Below, piece by piece: positions 19,358 to 61,733 of a stretch of DNA of 64,000 nucleotides. Both the position numbers and the translations under genes were made by a program. This DNA is from Flectonema sp. DT1601 (lineage: Eukaryota). The stretch is taken from contig OZ025787.1 in assembly GCA_964019425.1 (NCBI GenBank), positions 496,001 to 560,000 of the forward strand. The letters run 5' to 3'. Numbering within the stretch: position 1 is the first letter of the stretch; each line of letters starts with the position of its first letter. The notes beneath the pieces are model-generated. The model was not told where the DNA came from and ran no database searches. It was given only the letters and a program-made list of their open reading frames with translations.

Positions 19358-22300
19358 ATGTGTTCTCGCATGATATTATTTGCGTCGTTGATTGCCGTTT
19401 GTCTTTGTTCTGAAGATATGAATCCTGGTGATTCACGTAGTATGACAGACATGAATCATGGTGATCGTGACGGTGAAAAGTTCGAAGAACGTCTCGGCGA
19501 GAAGCGTGATGGAGAAGAACGTGACGATGAGAAACGCGAAGAACGTCTTGGCGAGAAGCGTGATGAAGAAAACCGTAACGGTGTGAAACGTGAAGAACGT
19601 GACGGTATGAAACGTGAAGAACGTCTTGGCGAGAAGCGTGATGGAGAAGAACGTGACGGTGAGAAACGTGAAGAACGTCTCGGCGAGAAGCGTGACGAAG
19701 AAAACCGTGAAGGTGAGAAACGTGAAGAACGTCTTGGCGAGAAGCGTGATGAAGAAAACCGTAACGGTGAGAAACGTGAAGAACGTATTGGCGAGAAGCG
19801 TGATGGTGAAGACCGTGACGGTGAGAAGCCTGAAGAACGTGACGGTGAGAAACGTGAAGAACGTCTTGGCGAGAAGCGTGATGGAGAAGAACGTGACGGT
19901 GAGAAGCCTGAAGAACGTCTTGGCGAGAAGCGTGATGGAGAAAACCGTGATGGTGACAAGCGTGAAGAACGTCTAGGAGAGAAGCGTGATGGTGAAGACC
20001 GTGACGGTGAGAAGCCTGAAGAACGTGACGGTGAGAAGCCTGAAGAACGTCTTGGCGAGAAGCGTGATGGAGAAAACCGTGATGGTGACAAGCGTGAAGA
20101 ACGTCTAGGAGAGAAGCGTGATGGTGAAGACCGTGACGGTGAGAAACGTGGAGAACGTCTTGGCGAGAAACGTGATGGTGAAGACCGTGACGGTGAGAAG
20201 CCTGAAGAACGTGACGGTGAGAAACGTGAAGAACGTCTTGGCGAGAAGCGTGATGGAGAAGAACGTGACGGTGAGAAGCCTGAAGAACGTCTTGGCGAGA
20301 AGCGTGATGGAGAAAACCGTGATGGTGACAAGCGTGAAGAACGTCTAGGAGAGAAGCGTGATGGTGAAGACCGTGACGGTGAGCAACGTGGAGAACGTCT
20401 TGGCGAGAAACGTGATGGTGAAGACCGTGACGGTGAGAAGCCTGAAGAACGTGACGGTGAGAAGCCTGAAGAACGTCTTGGCGAGAAGCGTGATGGTGAG
20501 AAACACGAAGAACGTGACGGTGAGAAACGTGAAAAACGTCTTGGCGAGAAGCGTGATGGAGAAGAACGTGACGGTGAGAAGCCTGAAGACCGTGACGGTG
20601 AGAAACGTGAAGAACGTCTTGGCGAGAAACGTGATGGTGAAGACCGTGACGGTGAGAAGCCTGAAGAACGTGACGGTGAGAAGCCTGAAGAACGTCTCGG
20701 CGAGAAGCGTGATGGAGAAAACCGTGACGGTGAGAAACGTGGAGAACGTCTTGGCGAGAAACGTGATGGTGAAGACCGTGACGGTGAGAAGCCTGAAGAA
20801 CGTCTTGGCGAGAAGCGTGATGGTGAGAAACACGAAGAACGTGACGGTGAGAAACGTGAAGAACGTCTTGGCGAGAAACGTGATGGTGAAGACCGTGACG
20901 GTGAGAAGCCTGAAGAACGTGACGGTGAGAAGCCTGAAGAACGTCTCGGCGAGAAACGTGATGGTGAAAACCGTGACGGTGAGAAGCCTGAAGAACGTCT
21001 TGGCGAGAAGCGTGATGGTGAGAAACACGAAGAACGTGACGGTGAGAAACGTGAAGAACGTCTTGGCGAGAAACGTGATGGTGAAAACCGTGACGGTGAG
21101 AAGCCTGAAGAACGTGACGGTGAGAAGCCTGAAGAACGTCTCGGCGAGAAACGTGATGGTGAAAACCGTGACGGTGAGAAGCCTGAAGAACGTCTCGGCG
21201 AGAAACGTGATGGTGAAAACCGTGACGGTGAGAAGCCTGAAGAACGTGACGGTGAGAAGCCTGAAGAACGTGACGGTGAGAAGCCTGAAGAACGTCTTGG
21301 CGAGAAGCGTGATGGTGAGAAACACGAAGAACGTGACGGTGAGAAACGTGAAGAACGTCTTGGCGAGAAGCGTGATGGAGAAGAACGTGACGGTGAGAAG
21401 CCTGAAGAACGTCTCGGCGAGAAGCGTGATGGAGAAAACCGTGACGGTGAGAAACGTGGAGAACGTCTTGGCGAGAAACGTGATGGTGAAGACCGTGACG
21501 GTGAGAAGCCTGAAGAACGTCTTGGCGAGAAGCGTGATGGTGAGAAACACGAAGAACGTGACGGTGAGAAACGTGAAGAACGTCTTGGCGAGAAGCGTGA
21601 TGGTGAAGACCGTGACGGTGAGAAGCCTGAAGAACGTGACGGTGAGAAGCCTGAAGAACGTCTCGGCGAGAAACGTGATGGTGAAAACCGTGACGGTGAG
21701 AAGCCTGAAGAACGTCTTGGCGAGAAGCGTGATGGTGAGAAACACGAAGAACGTGACGGTGAGAAACGTGAAGAACGTCTTGGCGAGAAACGTGATGGTG
21801 AAAACCGTGACGGTGAGAAGCCTGAAGAACGTGACGGTGAGAAGCCTGAAGAACGTCTCGGCGAGAAACGTGATGGTGAAAACCGTGACGGTGAGAAGCC
21901 TGAAGAACGTCTCGGCGAGAAACGTGATGGTGAAAACCGTGACGGTGAGAAGCCTGAAGAACGTGACGGTGAGAAGCCTGAAGAACGTGACGGTGAGAAG
22001 CCTGAAGAACGTCTTGGCGAGAAGCGTGATGGTGAGAAACACGAAGAACGTGACGGTGAGAAACGTGAAGAACGTCTTGGCGAGAAGCGTGATGGTGAAG
22101 ACCGTGACGGTGAGAAGCCTGAAGAACGTGACGGTGAGAAACGTGAAGAACGTCTCGGCGAGAAGCGTGATGGAGAAGAACGTGACGGTGAGAAGCCTGA
22201 AGACCGTGACGGTGAGAAACGTGAAGAACGTCTCGGCGAGAAGCGTGATGGTGAAGAACGTGACGGTGAGAAACGTGATGGTGAGGAGCCTGAAGAACGT

Positions 22301-23725
22301 CTTGGCGAGAAGCGTGATGGAGAAGAACGTGACGGTGAGAAACGTGAAGAACGTCTTGGCGAGAAGCGTGATGAAGAAGAACGTGACGGTGAGAAACGTG
22401 AAGAACGTCTCGGCGAGAAGCGTGATGGAGAAGAACGTAACGGTGAGAAACGTGAAGAACGTCTTGGCGAGAAGCGTGATGAAGAAGAACGTGACGGTGA
22501 GAAACGTGAAGAACGTCTCGGCGAGAAGCGTGATGGAGAAGAACGTGACGGTGAGAAGCCTGAAGACCGTGACGGTGAGAAACGTGAAGAACGTCTCGGC
22601 GAGAAACGTGATGGAGAAGAACGTGACGGTGAGAAGCCTGAAGACCGTGACGGTGAGAAACGTGAAGAACGTCTCGGCGAGAAGCGTGATGGTGAAGAAC
22701 GTGACGGTGAGAAACGTGATGGTGAGGAGCCTGAAGAACGTGAAGGTGAGAACCGTGATGGAGAAAACCGTGACGGCGAAAAACGTGGTAGTGAAGACCG
22801 TGATGGAGAAAAACATGATGGTGAGAAACATGATGGTGAGAAACGTGATGGTGAGAAACGTGAAGAACGTGACGGCGATAATCGTGATGGGGAAAACCGT
22901 AATGGTGAGAAACGTGAAGAACGTGACGGTGACAAACGCGAAGAACGTCTTGGCGAGAAGCGTGATGGTGAAGACCATGACGGAGAGGAACATGATGGTG
23001 AGAATCGTGATGTAGAAAAAAGAGAAAAACGTGAAGATGGAGATTACGAAGAAAGTAACGAAGGTAAGTATGAACTCTCCAGAAAGTCTTTGCGTACCGT
23101 CCTTAAAGTACAGAAGTCACCATCTCAGATAGCATTTGGTCAATTGAGAGACGCTGTTTTGAAATCAGCCAACAAGAACGGTGTTGTCGTGAAAGATGTT
23201 GCAATTCTGTTTGCTTGTCCGATTTCCGCATGTGTTTCCCTTGTGTGCCCTGATACGGTTGAGTTAAGAGCTGCTGTTGGATGTGTGGAGGGGAGCGAAA
23301 GAGAGGTTTCTATTAGTGAGTCAGGTTCATCAATTGTTGAATACCATTTGACGATGGAGAAGGGAGCGAGTTTCAGCAACGCTGTTGAGAATATTGAATC
23401 TGACGTCTCGGCAGTCGGTGACTCTTCGAACAATTCCAATGTATTCACAGGAACGAATGTTGTGGCTGCCAGTTCTCTTGTTGAAGTAGATCACGACGAC
23501 GATGGTGATGATGACGACAAGAACAACGTGTTGGTTATTATTGGAAGCATTTGCCTTGTGCTGCTCACTTGTGTTGTGATCGCTGTTATATACGGCTGTT
23601 GCTTCAGAAAGAAAAAATACGAAAAGAGTGACATCGAATCACCAATGTCTTCAGGTAAAGCATTTGAATTAAAAGACGCTGAGATAGAAGAAGTCATCTT
23701 TGAGTCTCGAGCATCCAGTATTTGA
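19358..23725 (+). CDS. Charged-repeat type I membrane protein, paralog 1 (1455 aa)
   Basis: Signal peptide, about 1200 aa of E/R/D/G/K repeats, Cys-containing domain, TM (VLVIIGSICLVLLTCVVIAVIYGCCF), RKKK stop-transfer, short tail. Confidence 0.9.
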   Translation: MCSRMILFASLIAVCLCSEDMNPGDSRSMTDMNHGDRDGEKFEERLGEKRDGEERDDEKREERLGEKRDEENRNGVKREERDGMKREERLGEKRDGEERDGEKREERLGEKRDEENREGEKREERLGEKRDEENRNGEKREERIGEKRDGEDRDGEKPEERDGEKREERLGEKRDGEERDGEKPEERLGEKRDGENRDGDKREERLGEKRDGEDRDGEKPEERDGEKPEERLGEKRDGENRDGDKREERLGEKRDGEDRDGEKRGERLGEKRDGEDRDGEKPEERDGEKREERLGEKRDGEERDGEKPEERLGEKRDGENRDGDKREERLGEKRDGEDRDGEQRGERLGEKRDGEDRDGEKPEERDGEKPEERLGEKRDGEKHEERDGEKREKRLGEKRDGEERDGEKPEDRDGEKREERLGEKRDGEDRDGEKPEERDGEKPEERLGEKRDGENRDGEKRGERLGEKRDGEDRDGEKPEERLGEKRDGEKHEERDGEKREERLGEKRDGEDRDGEKPEERDGEKPEERLGEKRDGENRDGEKPEERLGEKRDGEKHEERDGEKREERLGEKRDGENRDGEKPEERDGEKPEERLGEKRDGENRDGEKPEERLGEKRDGENRDGEKPEERDGEKPEERDGEKPEERLGEKRDGEKHEERDGEKREERLGEKRDGEERDGEKPEERLGEKRDGENRDGEKRGERLGEKRDGEDRDGEKPEERLGEKRDGEKHEERDGEKREERLGEKRDGEDRDGEKPEERDGEKPEERLGEKRDGENRDGEKPEERLGEKRDGEKHEERDGEKREERLGEKRDGENRDGEKPEERDGEKPEERLGEKRDGENRDGEKPEERLGEKRDGENRDGEKPEERDGEKPEERDGEKPEERLGEKRDGEKHEERDGEKREERLGEKRDGEDRDGEKPEERDGEKREERLGEKRDGEERDGEKPEDRDGEKREERLGEKRDGEERDGEKRDGEEPEERLGEKRDGEERDGEKREERLGEKRDEEERDGEKREERLGEKRDGEERNGEKREERLGEKRDEEERDGEKREERLGEKRDGEERDGEKPEDRDGEKREERLGEKRDGEERDGEKPEDRDGEKREERLGEKRDGEERDGEKRDGEEPEEREGENRDGENRDGEKRGSEDRDGEKHDGEKHDGEKRDGEKREERDGDNRDGENRNGEKREERDGDKREERLGEKRDGEDHDGEEHDGENRDVEKREKREDGDYEESNEGKYELSRKSLRTVLKVQKSPSQIAFGQLRDAVLKSANKNGVVVKDVAILFACPISACVSLVCPDTVELRAAVGCVEGSEREVSISESGSSIVEYHLTMEKGASFSNAVENIESDVSAVGDSSNNSNVFTGTNVVAASSLVEVDHDDDGDDDDKNNVLVIIGSICLVLLTCVVIAVIYGCCFRKKKYEKSDIESPMSSGKAFELKDAEIEEVIFESRASSI

Positions 23726-24988
23726 AAAGGAATGATAGTGACATTTTCTTTAATTAGATGATGTTAGTTCTATACAGTTTGTTCCTTGGTAAGATTACAA
23801 GAGTATATTTTTATTTGTTTCCATCTAATTAATTTGTCTATCTACTTTGCACATTGCTATTTGAAAAATATCTGTCTGCCGTTTTCGAATGCTTTGTGGA
23901 TTTCGACTTTTTGAAGTTTCTTTTTTTCTTTTTCGTTTCGGGAATCACGAATTTAATTGAATTTAATCTTTTTGCAACCATCGCAAAGAGAAATGTGAAT
24001 CAAACTCATATTTCGGCAAGTTAATTTTAACTTGTTGTTTCTAACATTTTATAAGAACCTCATTAATTAAGTTCTTATTGTAGAGGAAATTAAGCCACTG
24101 TTTTCTTTGGCATGTTATCTCCCAAGTTATTGAATAATATTTCCTCCCTTTTGTTTAACTAGGTCACAGGCCAAGTTTATTGATTTATATTATCCTCTCT
24201 TTTCTATTTCTGATGTCTTTACATTCGAATTCTTTGAGGAAATTAATTTTTATAAGTTTTCTCTTATTGAATTGAATTTCATTGCGACGAGCTCTTCTGG
24301 TTGTTGGTCTTCCACAACTAAATTGTTAATCCTCGAAAGTAAATTATAATTCTTCAGTACATTATTTATATTTCAACTTACAGGAAGCTTTCAACACAAG
24401 CTCAGCTGATGTGAAATCTTCGCTTATTTATTGTTTGAATTGATTTCACGACATGAAATAGAGAGCCTTCGGATAATTACTTTCTTTTCTTAGAAAATGC
24501 CCCCTTCAATACAAGGCTACGAAGTATAAAACAACATTGAGGAACTATATTGTAGATGACAAGCATTTGGAGTTTTAAAAACTAATAAAGGTTTGAGATG
24601 ATGTTTTTGAAGTTATAATTTTATGACTGTTGTTCGCTGATAAAACTTTTAACAATATGATATACTTGTACCCCTTTAAAGGGTAATTTCAAAAAATGAA
24701 ACAGAAATAAAGGGTGCCGAAAGAAACGCTTCGTACTTCTGGCGGTGCCATGAGACTCGGACACATCCATAGAATACAGTCTGAGCATGAGTGGAAACCT
24801 TTTTGTTTTTTTATTATTTATTCCCAATAAACATAACTCAGCCCCACTCATTTTGTTGGTATCCCGCGTTCACTGATATTTATACAGGGGGACTGTGTTA
24901 AATGGTGGAAGAAATAACGATGTTGACGTGGTCCCTTGGCTGAGAAGGGCAAACGCGATGAGTAGGACAGGCCTGACACCGCAGTGTC

Positions 24989-25067
24989 CCCCTTACTTTC
25001 TTCGCAGAAGAGAGCTGGGTAAGGGGAATGGTCCGAAGAAAGATTTTTTTATTTTAGCCCGAAACCA
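24989..25067 (+). ncRNA. Rearranged hammerhead-like ribozyme, family B (core mutated to CAGAAGA)
   Basis: Stem I CTTTCTTCG 24996-25004 / CGAAGAAAG 25034-25042. Core 25005-25011. Stem II GAGCTGG / TTAGCCC then GAAA 25061. Stem III TGGT / ACCA, site GTC at 25033. Extra helix CCCCTTA / TAAGGGG. Confidence 0.7.
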
Positions 25068-25362
25068 ACCATTATTTGTTTGTTGTCCTCCGAACTTTTG
25101 CATTCTATTGAATTTTGCCGCCTTCTCCCCTTCTTTTGACTGATAACCATAAATACTAACTAAAAACCTTTAATTTGCATCAAATCCGATTTATTACCCC
25201 TTTAATTTTCCCCCGTACAAGTATGATCCGAGTATTAATTCTGATAATGATTTAGTTATAAGTGAAATGATTAGTTTTAGAATTTTAACATCGCAGAATT
25301 GTAATGTAGATTTTAATTTGTAGCTGACGTCATCTTGCTAATAGTTTCAACTTAAACATAAA

Positions 25363-28300
25363 ATGTGTTCTCGCATGATATTATTTGCGTCGTTGATTGC
25401 CGTTTGTCTTTGTTCTGAAGATATGAATCCTGGTGATTCACGTAGTATGACAGACATGAATCATGGTGATCGTGACGGTGAAAAGTTCGAAGAACGTCTC
25501 GGCGAGAAGCGTGATGGAGAAGAACGTGACGATGAGAAACGCGAAGAACGTCTTGGCGAGAAGCGTGATGAAGAAAACCGTAACGGTGTGAAACGTGAAG
25601 AACGTGACGGTATGAAACGTGAAGAACGTCTTGGCGAGAAGCGTGATGGAGAAGAACGTGACGGTGAGAAACGTGAAGAACGTCTTGGCGAGAAGCGTGA
25701 TGAAGAAAACCGTAACGGTGAGAAACGTGAAGAACGTCTAGGCGAGAAGCGTGACGAAGAAAACCGTAATGGTGAGAAACGTGAAGAACGTGAAGGTGAG
25801 AAACGTGAAGAACGTCTAGGCGAGAAGCGTGATGAAGAAAACCGTGACGGTGAGAAACGTGAAGAACGTATTGGCGAGAAGCGTGATGAAGAAGAACGTG
25901 ACGGTGAGAAACGTGAAGAACGTCTTGGCGAGAAGCGTGATGAAGAAAACCGTGACGGTGTGAAACGTGAAGAACGTGAAGGTGAGAAACGTGAAAAACG
26001 TCTTGGCGAGAAGCGTGATGAAGAAAACCGTGACGGTGAGAAACGTGAAGAACGTGAAGGTGAGAAACGTGAAGAACGTCTTGGCGAGAAGCGTGATGAA
26101 GAAAACCGTAACGGTGAGAAACGTGAAGAACGTGACGGTATGAATCGTGAAGAACGTCTTGGCGAGAAGCGTGATGGAGAAGAACGTGACGGTGAGAAAC
26201 GTGAAGAACGTATTGGCGAGAAGCGTGATGAAGAAAACCGTAATGGTGAGAAACGTGAAGAACGTGAAGGTGAGAAACGTGAAGAACGTCTAGGCGAGAA
26301 GCGTGATGAAGAAAACCGTAATGGTGAGAAACGTGAAGAACGTCTTGGCGAGAAGCGTGATGAAGAAAACCGTAATGGTGAGAAACGTGAAGAGCGTCTT
26401 GGCGAGAAGCGTGATGAAGAAAACCGTAACGGTGAGAAACGTGAAGAACGTGACGGTATGAATCGTGAAGAACGTCTTGGCGAGAAGCGTGATGGAGAAG
26501 AACGTGACGGTGAGAAACGTGAAGAACGTATTGGCGAGAAGCGTGATGGAGAAGACCGTGACGGTGAGAAACGTGAAGAACGTATTGGCGAGAAGCGTGA
26601 TGAAGAAGACCGTGACGGTGAGAAACGTGAAGAACGTATTGGCGAGAAGCGTGATGAAGAAGAACGTGACGGTGAGAAACGTGAAGAACGTATTGGCGAG
26701 AAGCGTGATGAAGAAGAACGTGACGGTGAGAAACGTGAAGAACGTGACGGTATGAATCGTGAAGAACGTCTTGGCGAGAAGCGTGATGGAGAAGAACGTG
26801 ACGGTGAGAAACGTGAAGAACGTATTGGCGAGAAGCGTGATGAAGAAGACCGTGACGGTGAGAAACGTGAAGAACGTATTGGCGAGAAGCGTGATGAAGA
26901 AGAACGTGACGGTGAGAAACGTGAAGAACGTATTGGCGAGAAGCGTGATGAAGAAGAACGTGACGGTGAGAAACGTGAAGAACGTATTGGCGAGAAGCGT
27001 GATGAAGAAGAACGTGACGGTGAGAAACGTGAAGAACGTATTGGCGAGAAGCGTGATGAAGAAAACCGTGACGGTGTGAAACGTGAAGAACGTGAAGGTG
27101 AGAAACGTGAAGAACGTCTTGGCGAGAAGCGTGATGAAGAAGAACGTGACGGTGAGAAACGTGAAGAACGTGACGGTGAGAAACGTGAAGAACGTATTGG
27201 CGAGAAGCGTGATGAAGAAAACCGTAACGGTGTGAAACGTGAAGAACGTGAAGGTGAGAAACGTGAAGAACGTCTTGGCGAGAAGCGTGATGGAGAAGAA
27301 CGTGACGGTGAGAAACGTGAAGAACGTCTCGGCGAGAAGCGTGATGGAGAAGAACGTGACGGTGAGAAACGCGAAGAACGTCTTGGCGAGAAGCGTGATG
27401 AAGAAAACCGTGACGGTGTGAAACGTGAAGAACGTGAAGGTGAGAAACGTGAAGAACGTCTTGGCGAGAAGCGTGATGGAGAAGAACGTGACGGTGAGAA
27501 ACGCGAAGAACGTCTTGGCGAGAAGCGTGATGAAGAAAACCGTGACGGTGTGAAACGTGAAGAACGTGAAGGTGAGAAACGTGAAGAACGTCTTGGCGAG
27601 AAGCGTGATGAAGAAAACCGTAACGGTGTGAAACGTGAAGAACGTGAAGGTGAGAAACGTGAAGAACGTATTGGCGAGAAGCGTGATGAAGAAAACCGTA
27701 ACGGTGTGAAACGTGAAGAACGTGAAGGTGAGAAACGTGAAGAACGTCTCGGCGAGAAGCGTGATGGAGAAGAACGTGACGGTGAGAAACGTGAAGAACG
27801 TATTGGCGAGAAGCGTGATGAAGAAAACCGTGACGGTGTGAAACGTGAAGAACGTGACGGTGAGAAACGCGAAGAAAGTCTCGGTGAGAAGCGTGATGAA
27901 GAAAACAGTGACGGTGAGAAACGTGAAGAACGTCTAGGCGAGAAGCGTGACGAAGAAAACCGTAACGGTGAGAAACGTGAAGAACGTGACGGTATGAATC
28001 GTGAAGAACGTCTTGGCGAGAAGCGTGATGGAGAAGAACGTGACGGTGAGAAACGTGAAGAACGTATTGGCGAGAAGCGTGATGAAGAAAACCGTGACGG
28101 TGAGAAACGTGAAGAACGTATTGGCGAGAAGCGTGATGAAGAAAACCGTGACGGTGTGAAACGTGAAGAACGTGACGGTGAGAAACGCGAAGAAAGTCTC
28201 GGTGAGAAGCGTGATGAAGAAAACAGTGACGGTGAGAAACGTGAAGAACGTCTAGGCGAGAAGCGTGACGAAGAAAACCGTAACGGTGAGAAACGTGAAG

Positions 28301-29766
28301 AACGTGACGGTATGAATCGTGAAGAACGTCTTGGCGAGAAGCGTGATGGAGAAGAACGTGACGGTGAGAAACGTGAAGAACGTATTGGCGAGAAGCGTGA
28401 TGAAGAAAACCGTGACGGTGAGAAACGTGAAGAACGTATTGGCGAGAAGCGTGACGAAGAAAACCGTAACGGTGAGAAACGTGAAGAACGTGACGGTATG
28501 AATCGTGAAGAACGTCTTGGCGAGAAGCGTGATGGAGAAGAACGTAACGGTGAGAAACGTGAAGAACGTATTGGCGAGAAGCGTGATGAAGAAAACCGTG
28601 ACGGTGAGAAACGTGAAGAACGTCTCGGTGAGAAGCGTGATGAAGAAAACCGTGACGGTGAGAAACGTGAAGAACGTCTCGGTGAGAAGCGTGATGAAGA
28701 AAACCGTGACGGTGTGAAACGTGAAGAACGTGACGGTGAGAAACGCGAAGAAAGTCTCGGTGAGAAGCGTGACGAAGAAAACCGTGTCGGTGAGGAACGT
28801 GAAGATCGTGACGGTGAGAAACGCGAAGAAAGTCTCGGTGAGAAGCCTGATGAAGAAAACCGTGATGGTGAGAAACACGATGAACTTGACGGTGAAAAAC
28901 GTGAAGAACATCTTGGCGAAAACCGTGACGGTGAGAAACGCGGAGAACGTCTCGGCGAGAAGCGTGATGGAGAAGAACGTGACAATGAGAAACGTAAAAA
29001 CCGTGATGGTGAGAAACGTGATGGTGAAAAACGTGATAGTGAGAATCATGATGTAGAAAGAAGAGAAGCACGTGACGATGGAGATTACGAAGAAAGTAAC
29101 AAAGGTAAATATGAACTCTCCAGAAAGTCTTTGCGTACCGTCCTTAAAGTACAGAAGTCACCATCTCAGATAGCATTCGGTCAATTGAGAGACGCTGTTT
29201 TGAAATCAGCCAACCAGAACGGTGTTATCGTGAGGGATGTTGCAATTCTGTTTGCTTGTCCGATTTCCGCATGTGTTTCACTTGTGTGCCCTGATACGGT
29301 TGAGTTAAGAGCTGCTGTTGGATGTGTGGAGGGGAGCGAAAGAGATGTTTCTATTAGTGAGTCAGGTTCATCAATTGTTGAATACCATTTGACGATGGAG
29401 AAGGGAGCGAGTTTCAGCAACGCTGTTGAGAATATTAAATCTGACGTCTCGGCAGTCAGTGACTCTTCGAACAATTCCAATGTATTCACAGGAACGAATG
29501 TTGTGGCTGCCAGTTCTCTTGTTGAAGTAGATCACGACGATGATGGTGATGATGACGACAAGAACAATGTGTTGGTTATTATTGGAAGCATTTGCCTTGT
29601 GCTGCTCACTTGTGTTGTGATCGCTGTTATATACGGCTGTTGCTTCAGAAAGAAGAAATACGAAAAGAGTGACATCGAATCACCAATGTCTTCAGGTAAA
29701 GCATTTGAATTAAAAGACGCTGAGATAGAAGAAGTCATCTTTGAGTCTCGAGAATCCAGAATCTGA
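25363..29766 (+). CDS. Charged-repeat type I membrane protein, paralog 2 (1467 aa)
   Basis: Same N- and C-termini as paralog 1, different repeat mix. Confidence 0.9.
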   Translation: MCSRMILFASLIAVCLCSEDMNPGDSRSMTDMNHGDRDGEKFEERLGEKRDGEERDDEKREERLGEKRDEENRNGVKREERDGMKREERLGEKRDGEERDGEKREERLGEKRDEENRNGEKREERLGEKRDEENRNGEKREEREGEKREERLGEKRDEENRDGEKREERIGEKRDEEERDGEKREERLGEKRDEENRDGVKREEREGEKREKRLGEKRDEENRDGEKREEREGEKREERLGEKRDEENRNGEKREERDGMNREERLGEKRDGEERDGEKREERIGEKRDEENRNGEKREEREGEKREERLGEKRDEENRNGEKREERLGEKRDEENRNGEKREERLGEKRDEENRNGEKREERDGMNREERLGEKRDGEERDGEKREERIGEKRDGEDRDGEKREERIGEKRDEEDRDGEKREERIGEKRDEEERDGEKREERIGEKRDEEERDGEKREERDGMNREERLGEKRDGEERDGEKREERIGEKRDEEDRDGEKREERIGEKRDEEERDGEKREERIGEKRDEEERDGEKREERIGEKRDEEERDGEKREERIGEKRDEENRDGVKREEREGEKREERLGEKRDEEERDGEKREERDGEKREERIGEKRDEENRNGVKREEREGEKREERLGEKRDGEERDGEKREERLGEKRDGEERDGEKREERLGEKRDEENRDGVKREEREGEKREERLGEKRDGEERDGEKREERLGEKRDEENRDGVKREEREGEKREERLGEKRDEENRNGVKREEREGEKREERIGEKRDEENRNGVKREEREGEKREERLGEKRDGEERDGEKREERIGEKRDEENRDGVKREERDGEKREESLGEKRDEENSDGEKREERLGEKRDEENRNGEKREERDGMNREERLGEKRDGEERDGEKREERIGEKRDEENRDGEKREERIGEKRDEENRDGVKREERDGEKREESLGEKRDEENSDGEKREERLGEKRDEENRNGEKREERDGMNREERLGEKRDGEERDGEKREERIGEKRDEENRDGEKREERIGEKRDEENRNGEKREERDGMNREERLGEKRDGEERNGEKREERIGEKRDEENRDGEKREERLGEKRDEENRDGEKREERLGEKRDEENRDGVKREERDGEKREESLGEKRDEENRVGEEREDRDGEKREESLGEKPDEENRDGEKHDELDGEKREEHLGENRDGEKRGERLGEKRDGEERDNEKRKNRDGEKRDGEKRDSENHDVERREARDDGDYEESNKGKYELSRKSLRTVLKVQKSPSQIAFGQLRDAVLKSANQNGVIVRDVAILFACPISACVSLVCPDTVELRAAVGCVEGSERDVSISESGSSIVEYHLTMEKGASFSNAVENIKSDVSAVSDSSNNSNVFTGTNVVAASSLVEVDHDDDGDDDDKNNVLVIIGSICLVLLTCVVIAVIYGCCFRKKKYEKSDIESPMSSGKAFELKDAEIEEVIFESRESRI

Positions 29767-31020
29767 AAAGGATTGATAGTGACATTTTCTTTAATTAGAT
29801 GATGTTAGTTCTATACAGTTTGTTCCTTGGTAAGATTACAAGAGTGTATTTTTATTTGTTTCCATCTAATTAATTTGTCTATCTACTTTGCACATTGCTA
29901 TTTGAAAAATATCTGTCTGCCGTTTTCGAATGCTTTGTGGATTTCGACTTTTTGAAGTTTCTTTTTTTTCTTTTTCGTTTCAGGAATCACGAATTTAATT
30001 GAATTTAATCTTTTTGCAACCATCGCAAAGAGAAATGTGAATCAAACTCATATTTCGGCAAGTTAATTTTAACTTGTTGTTTCTAACATTTTATAAGAAC
30101 CTCATTAATTAAGTTCTTATTGTAGAGGAAATTAAGCCACTGTTTTCTTTGGCATGTTATCTCCCAACTTATTGAATAATATTTCCTCTCTTTTGTTTAA
30201 CTAGGTCACAGGCCAAGTTTATTGATTTATATTATCCTCTCTTTTCTATTTCTGATGTCTTGACATTCGAATTCTTTGAGGAAATTTATTTTTATAAGTT
30301 TTCTCTTATTGAATTGAATTTCATTGCGACGAGCTCTTCTGGTTGTTGGTCTTCCACAACTAAATTGTTAATCCTCGAAAGTAAATTATAATTCTTCAGT
30401 ACATTATTTATATTTTAACTAACAGGAAACTTTCAAAAAATGAAACAGATATAAAGGAGGGCTTTCCCACCCACTTTATTCCCCTTTATTTTGAAGTAAA
30501 AAGAGGTCCGGCGCAGTTATGACCTTAAACTGACTATCATCTTGCCTGATCCTTTTGGTTTTCATTTCTTGCTGAGTGATATTGCTATGTGCCCCCCTCT
30601 TTTATTTTCTTTAGTTGTTTACAAACTGTTAGCCTCTGGGAATGGTGGGAGCTGGAAGTCGATCACTTCCAGCCAAAGCAATAAAACTACAATCTTCGCG
30701 ATTGGTTCCTAACGGATGCTGGCTATCCGGACCTCTCGTAGTCATCAGTTTGTATTTTGCTAACTAAATAACTAAAGGTAAGGGGAATGGTCCGAAGAAA
30801 GATTGTTGAATCTTAGCCCGAAACCAACCATTATTATTTGTTTGTTGTCCTACGAGCCTTTTCATTCGATTGAATTTTCCCACCCTCTCCCCTTCTTTTG
30901 ACTGATAACCATTAATACTAACTAAAAACTGGTCTAGCCCGTCCTGGCGAGCTCCGATGGACATTAGGAAATCAGTTCTTTTGAAATCGACCAAATGATG
31001 GATCCGATTTATTAGTTAAC

Positions 31021-31103
31021 TGGAATGAAGTCCCTAGAACTTACTGATGAAGGCCTAAGAGGGACAAGTAGTATAAGATTAAGGCCTGAAACTACGTATT
31101 CCA
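31021..31103 (+). ncRNA. Rearranged hammerhead ribozyme, family A, copy 1 (intact core)
   Basis: CTTA-CTGATGA(31044-31050)-AGGCCT ... GTAGT-A(31073)-TAAG ... AGGCCT-GAAA(31088)-CTAC. Extra helix GTCCCT/AGGGAC; closing helix TGGAAT/ATTCCA. Confidence 0.82.
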
Positions 31104-31218
31104 CAGTGTATTATGGAACAGCAAAACAATGTGTTTTTGTAATTTTTCTTTGTTATATTTTTATTTTAGTGCACTTTTTTATAATAAACTCAAATTCTGA
31201 CTAAAAACTGGTCCAAGG

Positions 31219-31518
31219 ATGACTCACTTTATTGTTGCGCTAGTCTCATTTGAGTCCATGATCATCCGAGACATTCTTAAAGGCACAAAGGATTTAAGAC
31301 TCCCTTTTGATCATTTTGACAAGATGTACCGAACTACAGAATATAGTTTCCATATGATACCATTAAAAGCTCAGGCTGATATGGATGTTACAATGACACC
31401 TGCGAATATAGGACCTTTGATGGTATGCGAAGATAAAGTAAAACGCAAATTGGATGACGACTCATCCATTAACTCGACTGTAATAGTGAAACGACCAAAC
31501 GTCAAAAATTCAAATTAA
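31219..31518 (+). CDS. Small hypothetical ORF (99 aa) between two hammerhead copies
   Basis: ATG-initiated ORF that nearly fills a ~324-nt insert in the repeat unit; no recognisable family. Confidence 0.3.
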   Translation: MTHFIVALVSFESMIIRDILKGTKDLRLPFDHFDKMYRTTEYSFHMIPLKAQADMDVTMTPANIGPLMVCEDKVKRKLDDDSSINSTVIVKRPNVKNSN

Positions 31519-31598
31519 GCAAAAGCAAATAAACATTGCTAGCCCTATCCTGGCGAGCTCCGATGGATTTTTATCTTAGAACGATAGCAACTTCAACA

Positions 31599-31683
31599 TG
31601 GAATGAAGTCCCTTAGAACTTACTGATGAAGGCCTAGAAAGGGACAAGTAGTATAAGATTAAGGCTCCTGAAACTACGTATTC
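31599..31683 (+). ncRNA. Rearranged hammerhead ribozyme, family A, copy 2 (intact core)
   Basis: CTGATGA 31623-31629, predicted site after A31653, extra helix extended to GTCCCTT/AAGGGAC, CT bulge in stem II. Confidence 0.8.
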
Positions 31684-31914
31684 TATTACCCTTTGATGTT
31701 AGGAAACTGTGGAAATGAATACTTTTCTTTTACTAATCTCTACTTTTCTTATTCTCACTTTTCTGTTCTAAAATTATTGATACTAACTAAAAACTCTCCC
31801 CTTCTTTTGACTGATAACCATTAATACTAACTAACTCCTGGCGAGCTCCGATGGACATTAAGAAATCAGTTCTTTTAAAATAGACCAATTGATGGATCCG
31901 ATTTATTATTTAAC

Positions 31915-32000
31915 TGGAAAGAAGTCCCTAGAACTTACTGATGAAGGCCTAGAAAGGGACAAGTAGTATAAGATTAAGGCTCCTGAAACTACGTATTCCA
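31915..32000 (+). ncRNA. Rearranged hammerhead ribozyme, family A, copy 3 (intact core)
   Basis: CTGATGA 31938-31944, predicted site after A31968, GAAACTAC downstream. Confidence 0.8.
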
Positions 32001-32410
32001 CAGTGTATTATTGAACAGCAGAACAATGTGTTTTTATAACTTTTCTTTTTTATATTCTATTTTAGTGCACTTTTTTTTTATACACTCATATTCTAACTAA
32101 AAACCTTTTGACTGATAACTGATAACCATCTAAGCCAGAAACCTTCTTGTTTGTTGTCCTACGAAATTTTGCTTTTTTTTTGATTGACTGATAATATTTA
32201 ATACTAACTAAAAACCTTTAATTTGCATTAAATCCGATTTATTTCCCCTTTAATTTTCCCCCGTACAAGTATGATCCGAGTATTAATTCTGATAATGATT
32301 TAGTTATAAGTGAAATAATTAGTTTTAGAATTTTAACATCGCGGAATTGTAATGTAGATTTTAATTTGTAGCTGACGTCATCTTGCTAATAGTTTCAACA
32401 TAAACACAAA

Positions 32411-35400
32411 ATGTGTTCTCGCATGATATTATTTGCGTCGTTGATTGCCGTTTGTCTTTGTTCTGAAGATATGAATCCTGGTGATTCACGTAGTATGACT
32501 GACATGAATCATGGTGATCGTGACGGTGAAAAAATTGAAAAACGTGACAGCGAGAAACGTGAAGAACGTCTCGGCGAGAAGCGTGATGGAGAAAACCGTG
32601 ACGGTGAGAAACGTGAAGAACGTCTTGGCGAGAAGCGTGATGGAGAAGAACGTGACGGTGAGAAACGTGAAGAACGTCTTGGCGAGAAGCGTGATGGAGA
32701 AGAACGTGAAGGTGAGAAACGTGAAGAACGTCTTGGCGAGAAGCGTGATGGTGAAGAACGTGACGGTGAGAAACGTGAAGAACGTCTCGGCGAGAAGCGT
32801 GATGGAGAAGAACGTGAAGGTGAGAAACGTGAAGAACGTCTTGGCGAGAAGCGTGATGGTGAAGAACGTGAAGGTGAGAAACGTGAAGAACGTCTTGGCG
32901 AGAAGCGTGATGGTGAAGAACGTGACGGTGAGAAACGCGAAGAACGTGATGGTGAGAAACGCGAAGAACGTCTTGGCGAGAAGCGTGATGGAGAAGAACG
33001 TGACGGTGAGAAACGTGAAGAACGTCTCGGCGAGAAGCGTGATGGAGAAGAACGTGAAGGTGAGAAACGTGAAGAACGTCTTGGCGAGAAGCGTGATGGT
33101 GAAGAACGTGAAGGTGAGAAACGTGAAGAACGTCTTGGCGAGAAGCGTGATGGAGAAGAACGTGAAGGTGAGAAACGTGAAGAACGTCTTGGCGAGAAGC
33201 GTGATGGTGAAGAACGTGACGGTGAGAAACGCGAAGAACGTGATGGTGAGAAACGCGAAGAACGTCTCGGCGAGAAGCGTGATGTAGAAAACCGTGATGA
33301 AGAAGAACGTGATGGTGAGAAACGTGAAGAACGTCTTGGCGAGAAGCGTGACGAAGAAAACCGTGACGGTGAGAAACGTGAAGAACGTCTCGGCGAGAAG
33401 CGTGATGGAGAAGAACGTGAAGGTGAGAAACGTGAAGAACGTCTTGGCGAGAAGCGTGATGGAGAAGAACGTGAAGGTGAGAAACGTGAAGAACGTCTTG
33501 GCGAGAAGCGTGATGGTGAAGAACGTGACGGTGAGAAACGCGAAGAACGTGATGGTGAGAAACGTGAAGAACGTCTTGGCGAGAAGCGTGATGGTGAAGA
33601 ACGTGACGGTGAGAAACGTGAAGAACGTCTTGGCGAGAAGCGTGATGGTGAAGAACGTGACGGTGAGAAACGCGAAGAACGTGATGGTGAGAAACGCGAA
33701 GAACGTCTCGGCGAGAAGCGTGACGAAGAAAACCGTGACGGTGAGAAACGTGAAGAACGTCTTGGCGAGAAGCGTGACGAAGAAAACCGTGACGGTGAGA
33801 AACGTGAAGAACGTCTCGGCGAGAAGCGTGATGGAGAAGAACGTGAAGGTGAGAAACGTGAAGAACGTCTTGGCGAGAAGCGTGATGGTGAAGAACGTGA
33901 CGGTGAGAAACGCGAAGAACGTCTTGGCGAGAAGCGTGATGGAGAAGAACGTGAAGGTGAGAAACGTGATGGTGAAGACCGTGACGGTGAGAAACGTGAA
34001 GAACGTCTTGGCGAGAAGCGTGACGAAGAAAACCGTGACGGTGAGAAACGTGAAGAACGTCTCGGCGAGAAGCGTGATGGAGAAGAACGTGAAGGTGAGA
34101 AACGTGAAGAACGTCTTGGCGAGAAGCGTGATGGTGAAGAACGTGACGGTGAGAAACGCGAAGAACGTCTTGGCGAGAAGCGTGATGGTGAAGAACGTGA
34201 TGGTGAGAAACGCGAAGAACGTCTCGGCGAGAAGCGTGATGTAGAAAACCGTGATGGTGATAAACGTGAAGAACGTCTTGGCGAGAAGCGTGATGGAGAA
34301 GAACGTGACGGTGAGAAACGCGAGGAACGTCTTGGCGAGAAGCGTGATGGAGAAGAACGTGACGGTGAGAAACGTGATGGTGAAGACCGTGACGGTGAGA
34401 AACGCGAAGAACGTCTTGGCGAGAAGCGTGATGGAGAAGAACGTGAAGGTGAGAAACGTGAAGAACGTCTTGGCGAGAAGCGTGATGGAGAAGAACGTGA
34501 CGGTGAGAAACGTGAAGAACGTCTCGGCGAGAAGCGTGATGGAGAAGAACGTGACGGTGAAAAACGCGAAGAACGTCTTGGCGAGAAGCGTGATGGAGTA
34601 GAACGTGACGGTGAGAAACGTGATGGTGAAGACCGTGACGGTGACAAGCCTGAAGAACGTGACGGTGAGAAACGTGAAGAACGTCTTGGCGAGAAGCGTG
34701 ATGGAGAGGAACGTGAAGGTGAGAAACGTGAAGAACGTCTTGGCGAGAAGCGTGATGGAGAAGAACGTGACGGTGAGAAACGTGAAGAACGTCTTGGCGA
34801 GAAGCGTGATGGAGAAGAACGTGACGGTGAGAAACGTGAAGAACGTCTCGGCGAGAAGCGTGATGGAGAAGAACGTGACGGTGAAAAACGCGAAGAACGT
34901 CTTGGCGAGAAGCGTGATGGAGTAGAACGTGACGGTGAGAAACGTGATGGTGAAGACCGTGACGGTGACAAGCCTGAAGAACGTGACGGTGAGAAACGTG
35001 AAGAACGTCTTGGCGAGAAGCGTGATGGAGAGGAACGTGACGGTGAGAAGCCTGAAGAACGTGACGGTGAGAAACGTGAAGAACGTCTAGGAGAGAAGCG
35101 TGATGGTGAAGACCGTGACGGTGACAAGCCTGAAGAACGTGACGGTGAGAAACGTGAAGAACGTCTTGGCGAGAAGCGTGATGGAGAGGAACGTGACGGT
35201 GAGAAGCCTGAAGAACGTGACGGTGAGAAACGTGAAGAACGTCTAGGAGAGAAGCGTGATGGTGAAGACCGTGACGGTGACGAGCCTGAAGAACGTGACG
35301 GTGAGAAACGTGAAGAACGTCTTGGCGAGAAGCGTGATGGAGAGGAACGTGACGGTGAGAAGCCTGAAGAACGTGACGGTGAGAAACGTGAAGAACGTCT

Positions 35401-36409
35401 AGGAGAGAAACGTGATGGTGAAGACCGTGACGGTGAGAAGCCTGAAGACCGTGACGGTGAGAAACGTGATGGTGAAGAGCCTGAAGAACGTGACGGTGAG
35501 AACCGTGATGGAAAAAACCGTGACGGCGAAAAACGTGGTAGTGAAGACCGTGATGTAGAAAAACATGATGGTGAGAAACGTGAAGAACGTGACGGCGATA
35601 ATCGTGATGGTGAAAACCGTAATGGTGAGAAACGTGAAGAACGTGACGGTGACAAACGCGAAGAAGGAGAGGAACATGATGGTGAGAATCGTGATGTAGA
35701 AAAAGGAGAAAAACGTGAAGATGGAGATTACGAAGAAAGTAACGAAGGTAAGTATGAACTCTCCAGAAAGTCTTTGCGTACCGTCCTTAAAGTACAGAAG
35801 TCACCATCTCAGATAGCATTCGGTCAATTGAGAGACGCTGTTTTGAAGTCAGCCAACAAGAACGGTGTTGTCGTGAAAGATGTTGCAATTCTGTTTGCTT
35901 GTCCGAATTCCGCATGTGTTTCCCTTGTGTGCCCTGATACGGTTGAGTTAAGAGCTGCTGTTGGATGTGTGGAGGGGAGCGAAAGAGATGTTTCTATTAG
36001 TGAGTCAGGTTCATCAATTGTTGAATACCATTTGACGATGGAGAAGGGAGCGAGTTTCAGCAACGCTGTTGAGAATATTGAATCTGACGTCTCGGCAGTC
36101 GGTGACTCTTCGAACAATTCCAATGTATTCACAGGAACGAATGTTGTGGCTGCCAGTTCTCTTGTTGAAGTAGATCACGACGATGATGGTGATGATGACG
36201 ACAAGAACAACGTGTTGGTTATTATTGGAAGCATTTGCCTTGTGCTGCTCACTTGTGTTGTGATCGCTGTTATATACGGCTGTTGCTTCAGAAAGAAAAA
36301 ATACGAAAAGAGTGACATCGAATCACCAATGTCTTCAGGTAAAGCATTTGAATTAAAAGACGCTGAGATAGAAGAAGTCATCTTTGAGTCTCGAGAATCC
36401 AGAATCTGA
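32411..36409 (+). CDS. Charged-repeat type I membrane protein, paralog 3 (1332 aa)
   Basis: Same termini as paralogs 1 and 2. Confidence 0.9.
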   Translation: MCSRMILFASLIAVCLCSEDMNPGDSRSMTDMNHGDRDGEKIEKRDSEKREERLGEKRDGENRDGEKREERLGEKRDGEERDGEKREERLGEKRDGEEREGEKREERLGEKRDGEERDGEKREERLGEKRDGEEREGEKREERLGEKRDGEEREGEKREERLGEKRDGEERDGEKREERDGEKREERLGEKRDGEERDGEKREERLGEKRDGEEREGEKREERLGEKRDGEEREGEKREERLGEKRDGEEREGEKREERLGEKRDGEERDGEKREERDGEKREERLGEKRDVENRDEEERDGEKREERLGEKRDEENRDGEKREERLGEKRDGEEREGEKREERLGEKRDGEEREGEKREERLGEKRDGEERDGEKREERDGEKREERLGEKRDGEERDGEKREERLGEKRDGEERDGEKREERDGEKREERLGEKRDEENRDGEKREERLGEKRDEENRDGEKREERLGEKRDGEEREGEKREERLGEKRDGEERDGEKREERLGEKRDGEEREGEKRDGEDRDGEKREERLGEKRDEENRDGEKREERLGEKRDGEEREGEKREERLGEKRDGEERDGEKREERLGEKRDGEERDGEKREERLGEKRDVENRDGDKREERLGEKRDGEERDGEKREERLGEKRDGEERDGEKRDGEDRDGEKREERLGEKRDGEEREGEKREERLGEKRDGEERDGEKREERLGEKRDGEERDGEKREERLGEKRDGVERDGEKRDGEDRDGDKPEERDGEKREERLGEKRDGEEREGEKREERLGEKRDGEERDGEKREERLGEKRDGEERDGEKREERLGEKRDGEERDGEKREERLGEKRDGVERDGEKRDGEDRDGDKPEERDGEKREERLGEKRDGEERDGEKPEERDGEKREERLGEKRDGEDRDGDKPEERDGEKREERLGEKRDGEERDGEKPEERDGEKREERLGEKRDGEDRDGDEPEERDGEKREERLGEKRDGEERDGEKPEERDGEKREERLGEKRDGEDRDGEKPEDRDGEKRDGEEPEERDGENRDGKNRDGEKRGSEDRDVEKHDGEKREERDGDNRDGENRNGEKREERDGDKREEGEEHDGENRDVEKGEKREDGDYEESNEGKYELSRKSLRTVLKVQKSPSQIAFGQLRDAVLKSANKNGVVVKDVAILFACPNSACVSLVCPDTVELRAAVGCVEGSERDVSISESGSSIVEYHLTMEKGASFSNAVENIESDVSAVGDSSNNSNVFTGTNVVAASSLVEVDHDDDGDDDDKNNVLVIIGSICLVLLTCVVIAVIYGCCFRKKKYEKSDIESPMSSGKAFELKDAEIEEVIFESRESRI

Positions 36410-38613: not shown

Positions 38614-39525
38614 AATGGTTGGCGGCGTTTCTTTGGCTCTCGATTTGAGAGTTCACTAGCGGCTTCTGGATTGTGAAGTGGGGTGGAGTGGAGTTCTGTT
38701 ATGGAAAGTGACGTCGATATAGCAGAATTGAAGTTTGAAACCTCAAAGTCCCGTTACAGAATGAGTATCGAACATTGATCAAGAGAACGGTCGACGCTGA
38801 TTGCCACGGGAGGTACGCATCGAGAAGTTGAACTTTCGGCAAAAGGATATGCTGTGCTATGGTATAAATACCTAACAAGTGATGAAAAAATTCAGCTCAG
38901 TTTGGGAATGCTGAGCTAATTGGCAGGTATCCCTCTGCTAAGGCTAAATATCTCCCGGAGACCGATAGCGAACAAGTACAGTGATGGAAAGATGCAAAGA
39001 ACTTTGAAAGGAGGGTTAAAGAGTCTCTGAAACCAGTGAGTGGTAAGAGTACGAGTTCCTCATGATTCTCCTCATCCGTATAGAACGAATGTGAACGAGG
39101 GTAAAGTTCTGTATTGGTGTGCTACTAGAATCTTCTATCCAACTGTTGTTTTCATGGAAAACCCAAGCAAGGGTGATAGCAGCAGAAAGTTACAAGACGT
39201 TGGAACTTATAGCAAACCTCTTAAGCAAAAACGAATATATTTCAGACAGAAGATGAATAAAAGAACTGCTAACATTGAAGAGGTCGAGTGGCAGCCTAAT
39301 CTAAACTGTTGGTCTTCACTCTTATTGAAAAGATACATATTTCACCATATTATTGATTGGAGTCAACAATTATGCGACAGCGCCACCGACGAAGCAAACC
39401 AGTTCAAATGATGTTACATCAGAAGACATCGACATCAAGGAAGTAACATACAACAACTACGCAGCGACGTGGGTGTCCGAGACGACGCAGAATACGAACG
39501 AAACTTATCTACGAAGCTTCGAGTG
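38614..39525 (+). pseudogene. Decayed relative of the 17166-17807 ORF, interrupted by other sequence
   Basis: AGTAATGGTTGGCGGCGTTTCTTTGGCTC matches 17162-17190. Later short collinear matches (TTACAGAATGAG, GACATC..AAGG, AAGCTTC.GAGT) are weak, so the 3' limit is uncertain. Confidence 0.45.
38894..39047 (+). rRNA. Isolated LSU (28S) rRNA fragment from the 5' domain; pseudogene fragment
   Basis: GTTTGGGAATGC...CTAAGGCTAAATA...GAGACCGATAGCGAACAAGTAC.GTGA.GGAAAGATG.AAAGAACTTTGAAA matches the conserved eukaryotic LSU segment between D1 and D2. No flanking rDNA recognised. Confidence 0.88.
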
Positions 39526-43585: not shown

Positions 43586-44602
43586 TTGGATATCTGCTAG
43601 CTGCAGTCTACTAACATATAATTGGAAGCAGTTGACAACTTTACTCTACTCCGTTAGACAACTCACCAACCGTACAGATAGCTAAGGGCGCTAGAGATTC
43701 GTTCTCTGATCGTACCGACGTATCACACTGGGATTCATTTAAGGTCTTTGGACAAAAATAATAGGAAGGAAAAAAAAAAAAGGGGGAGAATCTCGAAATA
43801 CTGAGTAGCACTGTATCCGTAGCGATTGGGTTCATTGAGAAAAAATGACATAAAAGCTGCAGCGATGCCAACGAGGGAAATGGAAGAAGAGAAAAAAAAA
43901 AAAAAAAAAAAAAAGACTATTTATAACGAAATTATTTTTAGTATATTTTGTATCCGTTTTTTTTGAGTACATTTTGTTCAGACAAATAAGGAAAATGTGT
44001 TTCTAAAGAGAATTCCAAGACACGATTTTTTTTGCTTTTTTTAAAAAAAAAAAAGAAATTAGTAAAAAATATTTTCCACCTCACAGTTTCACAAAATAGT
44101 AAACAACTCACTTACACACATTTATGGGTCTCATAAATGACGGAGGATGGTTTAATGGTATTCCACCACCTCAAAAGAGTATGTTTTGTCTGATATTCAT
44201 GATAAGTAATGAAACCAAACCTGTACACACTCAAAACAGAAAAAAAGAAGCAAAACGCAATGCCTCTGACAAGGCAAATAGTAGCGGCTGCGGGGAATGA
44301 AACAGCGGGATCTGCAACTTACGTACCGATGGTTAATGTTGCAGGGACTGTAGGAACAACACCAGTTAATCTAACTATTGGACTAAATAGATCGTTGTAA
44401 TACAATTGTGTATCTCATACTTAATCTTCGTGTCGATGCACTTTGTTTTAGGAGTTACCGAGCGTTGAACCCGTTAGCGTTCCATTTCGTGTTACACATT
44501 AGTTGATGCTCAACACGTTATCCAGAAAGGTGATGAGAGTCAAATTAACAGCTTTACTTTACAACTTTAATTATACAGCATCACAAATAACAATAGTTAA
44601 CA

Positions 44603-53085: not shown

Positions 53086-53391
53086 TATAAGATTAAGGCC
53101 TGGAGGGGGACAAGTAGTATAAGATTAAGGCTCCTGAAACTACGTATTCCACAAGTGTTTTATGGAACAGCAGAACAATTGTGTTTTGTAGGTTTTCTTT
53201 TTTTTATATTTTGATTTAGTGCAGCTATCTTATAATAAACTTATATTCTAATATTCCAGTCAAACGCAATGAGTAGGACTAGCCTGACACCGCGGTGCCC
53301 CTTTGCTTTCTTCGCTAACCATTATTAGGTTAGTTGTCCTACGAATTTTTGCATTTAATCTTTTTGATTGACTGCTAACTATTAATACTAA
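53086..53391 (+). mobile_element. Truncated copy of the ribozyme-bearing repeat: family A lacking CTGATGA, then family B with its core deleted, then the linker
   Basis: GGGACAAGTAGTATAAGATTAAGGCTCCTGAAACTACGTATTCCA at about 53107-53151; ATGAGTAGGAC...CTTTCTTCGCT|AACCATTATT...GTCCTACGAA at about 53269-53345. Confidence 0.8.
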
Positions 53392-61652: not shown

Positions 61653-61733
61653 TGGAATGAAGTCCCTTAGGACTTACTGATGAAGGCCTAAAAAGAGACT
61701 AGGTAGTATGAGAGGCCTGCAAATGCGTGTTCT
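61653..61733 (+). ncRNA. Degenerate family A hammerhead copy
   Basis: CTTA-CTGATGA(61677-61683)-AGGCCT ... GTAGTA-TGAG-AGGCCT-GCAA. GAAA and stem III are damaged; flanks match copy 2. Confidence 0.7.

Follow-up and report, generated by a model that had tools for sequence, protein, structure and literature searches.

The window, i.e., the whole 64,000-nucleotide stretch of DNA analysed here, carries intron-poor host genes, and those that could be named through Pfam all lie on the plus strand. Tandem duplicates are seen for GFAT (44597-46567 and 47774-49744) and for ribosomal protein S3 (6709-7245 and 9586-10122). Three tandem genes (19340-23725, 25345-29766 and 32393-36409) encode proteins of 1,340-1,470 aa that consist for the most part of R/D/E/G/K repeats and have a likely signal peptide as well as a membrane segment at the C-terminus; the first of them gives a weak match to TMEM154. 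An isolated and divergent fragment of eukaryotic LSU rRNA is present at 38710-39282, and it is the sole piece of rRNA in the window. A cluster of three hammerhead motifs, together with the end of a retroelement, sits between two copies of a host gene that is repeated in tandem. The features of this cluster, and the related ones elsewhere in the window, are given below.

24989..25067, plus strand: hammerhead of family B, a second CSG family with unrelated stem sequences, predicted cut after C25033
30777..30829, plus strand: family B remnant, 5'-truncated, S and G blocks only (BLAST match to 25018-25167)
30898..30929, plus strand: left copy of the 32-nt bracketing direct repeat (BLAST)
30934..31208, plus strand: truncated pseudo-LTR-like unit with copy 1
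31021..31103, plus strand: copy 1, type-CSG hammerhead (sequence, descriptor scan, block listing)
31214..31518, plus strand: 3' end of the retroelement ORF, 5'-truncated, last ~100 aa
31519..31790, plus strand: 3' UTR/pseudo-LTR with a 20-nt motif (31548-67), copy 2 and a tail of ~100 nt (repeat families D12, D16 and D9; BLAST)
31599..31685, plus strand: copy 2, type-CSG hammerhead, predicted cut after A31653 (descriptor scan, block listing)
31794..32104, plus strand: truncated pseudo-LTR-like unit with copy 3 (BLAST)
31915..32000, plus strand: copy 3, type-CSG hammerhead, predicted cut after A31968 (descriptor scan, block listing)
32184..32215, plus strand: right copy of the bracketing direct repeat, 29/32 identical to the left
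53086..53149, plus strand: family A copy, 5'-truncated, without CUGAUGA (BLAST)
61653..61732, plus strand: family A copy in a degenerate state, with a changed GAAA block and a partial loss of stem I'/linker

The initial annotation had described three copies with a full core and all three stems, and the sequence, the descriptor scan and the block listing agree with it: CUGAUGA, GAAA and the UA site are intact in every cluster copy. The blocks follow each other as C-S-G, in the nomenclature of Eckert et al. 2023 (PMC10085705), who defined the blocks C, G and S and named this order type CSG. The annotation had also supposed that rearranged hammerheads were reported before, and by that paper the topology is indeed published. 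In copy 1, the parts are placed as follows.

31021-26/31098-103: closing helix
31030-35/31060-65: auxiliary helix
31040-43/31074-77: stem I
31044-50: CUGAUGA
31051-56/31082-87: stem II
31068-72/31091-95: stem III
31073: predicted cut after this A
31088-91: GAAA

In the block listing, stem I is of 4 bp and stem III of 5 bp in the cluster copies, and the core halves are spaced by 37-40 nt. Stem II has 6 bp in copy 1; in copies 2 and 3, a CU bulge splits it into 3 bp and 3 bp. The auxiliary helix, noted earlier as an extra helix that is longer in copy 2, measures 6, 7 and 6 bp in copies 1, 2 and 3. The helix TGGAAT/ATTCCA, earlier said to close the fold, is indeed present, with the refinement that it contains one G-U in copy 2 and is only 5 bp long in copy 3. 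The core-adjacent pair in the three cluster copies is A10.1-U11.1, as against the usual G-C.

By BLAST, the cluster copies are 94-98% identical and form a single repeat family (family A); they are, therefore, not independent of each other. Stems I-III are invariant within the family, while one pair of the closing helix occurs as G-C, G-U and A-U across copies. When the window was compared with the runs X1-X4 (40 of 60 substitution rows shown), the four differences listed within copy 2 fell in linkers or in the bulge, or changed a G-U to an A-U. These runs hold 5-9% of the words and carry no claim on habitat or expression. In the copy at 53086, similarity begins 2 nt ahead of the predicted cut sequence and is followed by an internal duplication; its junction was considered as a trace of cleavage and set aside, being a single case with such a duplication. 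Neither the truncation at 30777 nor that at 61640 begins at a cut, and a CUGAUGA on the minus strand at 30748 fails the descriptor.

A descriptor script was run over all six hammerhead block orders on both strands of the 64-kb window. Exactly three matches were obtained, all of them C-S-G, with H17 at 31073, 31653 and 31968, which are the very cut positions predicted earlier. Types I, II and III (orders CGS, GSC and SCG) gave no match within the window, in line with the earlier view that the strand order is non-circular and belongs to none of these types. When stem II was required to have at least 4 bp, copy 1 alone matched. In 300 dinucleotide block shuffles, with thresholds chosen post hoc, the motif being already known, there were six matches in any order, one in CSG order, and none in CSG order with an auxiliary helix of at least 6 bp. 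The three copies being one family, and the thresholds being post hoc, lend something to the view that the motif is a chance arrangement within an ordinary repeat; but the shuffles (0/300), the recurrence of the CSG order with different stems in family B and in the related loci L101 and L103 described below, and the position in the tail of a Penelope-like element (PLE), where hammerheads are expected, make this view hardly credible.

It had further been foreseen that standard descriptors would miss the motif. Rfam, at its gathering score, is silent at this site, and the two published RNAMotif CSG descriptors (PMC10085705) do not fit either. They specify G-C at 10.1-11.1 and a linker of at most 10, whereas the window family has A-U and an 11-nt II-to-III' linker, and they would therefore miss family A; G10.1-C11.1 is a setting of the published descriptors and, in the part of the paper covered, is not stated as essential. 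A pattern scan of metagenomes returned 31 matches, none of them of family A and most without stems. Among the recurrent metagenome repeats having CUGAUGA and a pairable stem III, L003 and L021 show a weak CSG-like pairing with stems of 4/3, and L002, L010, L018, L029 and L031 are without stems I and II. In a pattern scan of 58 viral loci, hammerheads were found solely in the contig L075, which has three of type I within 2.5 kb (at 507, 2512 and 3004); a search of the viral contigs for RT found nothing.

The nested minimum-free-energy structure of each copy consists of the closing helix, the auxiliary helix and stem III, with stems I and II left over as a pair of loop-loop pseudoknots, which matches the structure line published for type CSG (PMC10085705). 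It is predicted that the auxiliary-helix and stem III hairpins adjoin each other, are held by the closing helix and kiss via their loops. The two kissing helices would be stems I and II, and they would bring CUGAUGA, GAAA and the UA site into an ordinary hammerhead core. The stem I duplex alone amounts to +0.3 kcal/mol, and the z-scores of the nested fold, in which pseudoknots are not counted, are weak (-0.8 to -1.5). When the whole cluster was folded together, the mean probability of stem III was 0.83, 0.53 and 0.01 in copies 1-3.

The initial annotation had offered, as an alternative, that neighbouring copies pair into a conventional dimeric hammerhead, which would be type III-like. The copies share one strand at distances of 580 and 315 nt, copy 1 has a palindromic stem II, and the predicted homodimer of copy 1 (-39.5 kcal/mol) is lower in energy than two monomers (-33.0 kcal/mol); dimer activity was also proposed for metazoan PLE hammerheads by Cervera and de la Pena 2014 (PMC4209133). 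However, in the whole-cluster fold, the cross-copy probability is 0.00 for each of stems I, II and III under the nested model, and in the predicted homodimer, the two stem II' strands pair with each other and CUGAUGA stays outside, so that no hammerhead results; the dimer is, therefore, a weak rival. Moreover, stem III is complete, at 5 bp, in every copy, which sets the copies apart from the dimer-dependent forms, and the homologues in L101 and L103 are single, with one strict match each. A dimer is, thus, very unlikely, and this part of the annotation was given up.

The ORF end between copies 1 and 2 (100 codons) is 97% identical to P0001, and tblastn of residues 1247-1350 of P0013 against 31214..31518 gave 93%. 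The P0001 cluster has 59 members, of which 40 were examined and 15 listed, and it includes proteins of 1,279 and 1,350 aa (P0007/P0013). In the full-length proteins, a cysteine-free GIY-YIG motif stands at the N-terminus, and CxC motifs, DKG, GIPMG and YIDD are present. In P0007, the GIY-YIG motif (residue ~167) and GIPMG (~843) stand in one ORF, and two CxC between the endonuclease and the RT, at ~448 and ~489, are candidate counterparts of the published CxC motif. The Pfam GIY-YIG match of P0007 is weak (E 0.14), and that of L101 and L103 reaches E ~1e-6. P0007 is without the marks of the animal Naiads, having DKG and not DKA and no Cys within the GIY-YIG core (no CCHH finger). It agrees with Chlamys in its N-terminal endonuclease without CCHH and in a DK with a variable third residue. 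In a quick, midpoint-rooted tree of 38 RT cores, with no named Naiad or Chlamys reference among its rows, P0007 is separated from the DKA rows, L101 and L103 among them (SH-aLRT 99). By the architecture of its encoded protein, the element is classed as a Penelope-like element of the Naiad/Chlamys clade, on the Chlamys-like side. The host is likely a marine protist, probably a diplonemid: the five best GFAT matches outside the window's own are EukProt entries with 60-87% identity, one of them carrying the diplonemid label 'Sspe', against 45-58% for all others, and the paucity of introns and the shared strand of the Pfam-named genes point the same way. Residues ~1075-1230 of P0007, an extension C-terminal to the RT, recall a Josephin-type protease in motifs that we assume to be characteristic of it. 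Such a Josephin-like domain was set aside, as searches in Pfam, PDB and ESM Atlas and for homologues gave no support and a single-sequence model had a pLDDT of 38.8. The comparison took in P0021, P0028 and L098, and related RTs have a UCH deubiquitinase domain in place of this extension.

The CUGAUGA of copy 2 lies 105 nt downstream of the ORF stop. A contig of the RNA run X1 spans 31214-31709 and goes on upstream in a full ORF; the ORF of the window is, therefore, 5'-truncated, and the linkage of ORF and ribozyme holds in another sample. Past ~31788, the contigs of relatives diverge. The units with copies 1 and 3 are related, as 30885-31208 is 88% identical to 31794-32104 by BLAST, and an X2 contig matches 30934-31205 with unrelated flanks. 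The 32-nt repeat that brackets the cluster is single, at 25136-25167, in the paralogous spacer without the cluster; the cluster is, therefore, an insertion. Both 5' truncation and partial-tandem insertion (pLTRs) are seen for the element. Thus, of the earlier description as three tandem copies, the copies themselves stand, but not a designed array: they are better read as tails left by truncated, partial-tandem insertions of the retroelement.

Some further details of the cluster may be recorded. The 20-nt motif is identical in all three units (30942-30961, 31548-31567 and 31836-31855); it lies upstream of the ribozyme at varying distances, and the sequence between the two differs. The segment 30458-30776 is missing from the paralogous spacer, and its part 30700-30775 is matched by X1, X2 and X4 contigs. 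An X2 contig joins 30700-30775 directly to the 3' UTR at 31513, and this segment may be the end of another subfamily.

The family B copy in the window is decayed, with the core CAGAAGA at 25005 and a stem II mismatch at 25013. Two X1 contigs have T at 25006 and G at 25013, which leaves the family B core intact and stem II paired. The family B repeat takes up 24880-25167, 30777-30929 and 53266-53391, and its hammerhead lies inside a longer outer helix, with GAUGA before and GAA after the helix; these flanks fail the descriptor. No parent ORF was found for family B. A family B tail of about 26-32 nt stands directly before the family A copies at 30934, 31836 and 61640, which suggests a preferred insertion next to other PLE tails.

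An RT alignment pulled 22 related loci, two pairs of which share contigs, from genome_contigs. They come under labels of prokaryotic assemblies and would be eukaryotic contamination. A strict non-circular hammerhead was found in three of the 22, always in sense and downstream: two are CSG (L101 and L103), and one, downstream of a Naiad-type RT, is SGC (L093). The same loci gave no canonical and no antisense match, none in 75,852 nt upstream and none in 500 shuffles, while 467,293 nt of other loci gave three type I matches and nothing else. At least 400 nt is available behind the RT match in 17 of the 22, and 14 of these 17 have no strict match. The stems are of 6/5/10 bp in L101 and 4/5/13 bp in L103, and the catalytic core bases are intact in both. 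The auxiliary helix has 7 bp in family B, 12 bp in L101 and 11-12 bp in L103, and G10.1-C11.1 is present in all three. The CSG order and its pairing are, thus, kept with different stem sequences in family B, L101 and L103. L101, L103, L093 and L110 all encode proteins with an N-terminal GIY-YIG. Two other loci, L110:4934-5050 and L098:3180-3290, are hammerhead-like and lie behind Naiad-type RTs; their stems I and III form, and the 5' strand of stem II is not beside CUGAUGA. In L110, this strand follows two hairpins, at a distance of 30 nt, and in L098 it is upstream of the S block.

It is quite probable, going by the sequence evidence, that the motif is a type-CSG hammerhead in the 3' tail of a PLE with an N-terminal endonuclease, and that it cuts in cis and helps free the element RNA from a longer transcript. 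The observations in its favour are the likeness to the published CSG-1 and CSG-2, the shuffles (0/300), the nested structure of each copy, the ORF link, the differences that preserve pairs, the diverged CSG families, the downstream sense-strand matches behind related RTs and the six Naiad consensus ends viewed by eye (see below). The sequence, the block order, the ORF link and the pairing kept across diverged families are matters of direct observation. Every copy lies on the strand of the host genes, and we infer that the element RNA would be made as a partial tandem or by read-through from the co-oriented host genes. On such transcripts, the kissing-hairpin hammerhead would fold and cut in cis after A31073, A31653 and A31968, and the cut would give defined ends for the RT-endonuclease complex. 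Counted against this reading are the marginal stem I, the weak z-scores, stem III of copy 3, A10.1-U11.1, the 14 of 17 loci without a match, the X1 contig that is uncut across 31653 and the data on Poseidon given below. In another X1 contig, the end falls precisely on 31969, the base directly after the predicted cut of copy 3, and a further contig begins at 25035, 1 nt beyond that of family B; these ends come from contigs only, of one study at a depth of about 3, and are not counted as evidence.

Several of these points could also mean that the CSG fold is real and selected, and is a very slow or protein-dependent cutter serving mainly as a structural signal for the RT. Stem I of 4 bp, the A-U at 10.1-11.1 and the uncut X1 contig would agree with it. 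So would the published behaviour of type CSG, as CSG-1 and CSG-2 both cleaved in vitro, though slowly, at 0.004 and 0.026 per min (PMC10085705). In Poseidon, the sole PLE that is biochemically tested, the hammerhead acts with the help of protein, insertion in vitro goes ahead without the hammerhead, and none of the RNA-seq reads had its start at the cut site (Frangieh et al. 2024, PMC11167929). Yet the catalytic core is intact in 3/3 cluster copies and in L101 and L103, for which structure alone has no obvious need, and L103 too has a stem I of 4 bp. A mainly structural role is, on balance, unlikely, and the type-CSG hammerhead variant of the Chlamys-like Penelope element is real and likely functional.

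The CSG topology itself is already published, and what sets the present case apart is that the CSG core is unsplit and that the element is Chlamys-like and not from an animal; the earlier suggestion that the novelty may lie in the family and genomic context turned out to be sound, the context being a Naiad/Chlamys-type Penelope-like retroelement. Type CSG has so far consisted of two unique sequences (five in all) from soil metagenomes, given with no host or context in the published account as far as covered (PMC10085705). The type can now be placed in a host lineage and in a biological context, and it gains examples that have diverged. Its authors graded the support for type CSG being biologically relevant as weaker, and among the non-circular types, their paper names a known organism solely for one GCS candidate. 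A wider proposal is that non-circularly permuted hammerheads are native to the whole clade of Penelope elements with N-terminal endonuclease across supergroups, in animal Naiads as well as in protist Chlamys-like elements. Retroelements would then be the natural home of CSG, possibly for the two soil sequences as well, and the reported lack of hammerheads in Naiad and Chlamys would be an artefact of descriptors; we regard the case for and against this proposal as evenly balanced. The reported success of a large retrotransposon clade without hammerheads was read as a sign that the ribozyme might be a passenger. A scrambled ribozyme, if present in the clade, would remove the ground for this view, and whether Penelope-type transposition requires cleavage could then be tested in the Naiad/Chlamys clade.

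In the parts covered, Craig et al. 2021 (PMC8557442) report no canonical hammerheads in Naiads and in most Chlamys, and they flagged 'HHR_core' cases and eight 'HHR_half_core' cases, the core halves being 35-50 nt apart. The window element resembles their set in its ORF, which is single and long and has GIY-YIG at the N-terminus, CxC motifs, DKx and RT, in 5' truncation, partial-tandem insertions and a short duplicated tail, and in having no canonical hammerhead. It differs in its complete non-circular hammerhead and its likely diplonemid host; the main text of PMC8557442 has no match to 'diplonem' or 'euglen'. By eye, six Naiad consensus ends in the supplement of that paper are complete CSG with an auxiliary helix, and two of the six are, by neighbouring headers, Naiad-2_Nbra and Naiad-3_Nbra, flagged HHR_core and HHR_half_core. 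The places covered in the supplement were 60/62 for CTGATGA, 23/23 for CTGACGA, 8/8 for CTGAAGAG, 8/8 for CTGAGGAG, 1/15 for CTGAAGAT and 0/5 for CTGAGGAT, motifs split at line ends being missed. No CSG was seen in the passages viewed of the Chlamys file, which form a part of it. Split forms similar to those of L110 and L098 are found by eye in consensus ends of Naiads from Acropora, Morbakka, Octopus and Darwinula. A search of the literature, with most subscription papers outside it, gave no link between permuted hammerheads and PLEs, and none is made in the portions covered of PMC13725137 and bioRxiv 10.64898/2026.07.22.740005.

Besides the Naiad/Chlamys elements, three known systems stand closest to the motif. 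With CSG-1 and CSG-2, the window copies share the block order and an auxiliary helix at the equal place, and they differ in their stem sequences, the added closing helix and the context of a eukaryotic chromosomal retroelement (PMC10085705). Type SGC (HRIMA-1) of the same paper has the equal non-circular cyclic order of blocks and is opened at another linker than CSG; its 5' and 3' ends are, hence, different, and it is mostly metatranscriptomic. The type I hammerheads of canonical PLEs and retrozymes are alike in their pseudo-LTR position and in the proposed processing of precursor RNA (PMC4209133, PMC11167929). They are circular permutations, and their stem III is often minimal and dependent on a dimer, whereas the motif of the window is predicted to be doubly pseudoknotted and has a full stem III.
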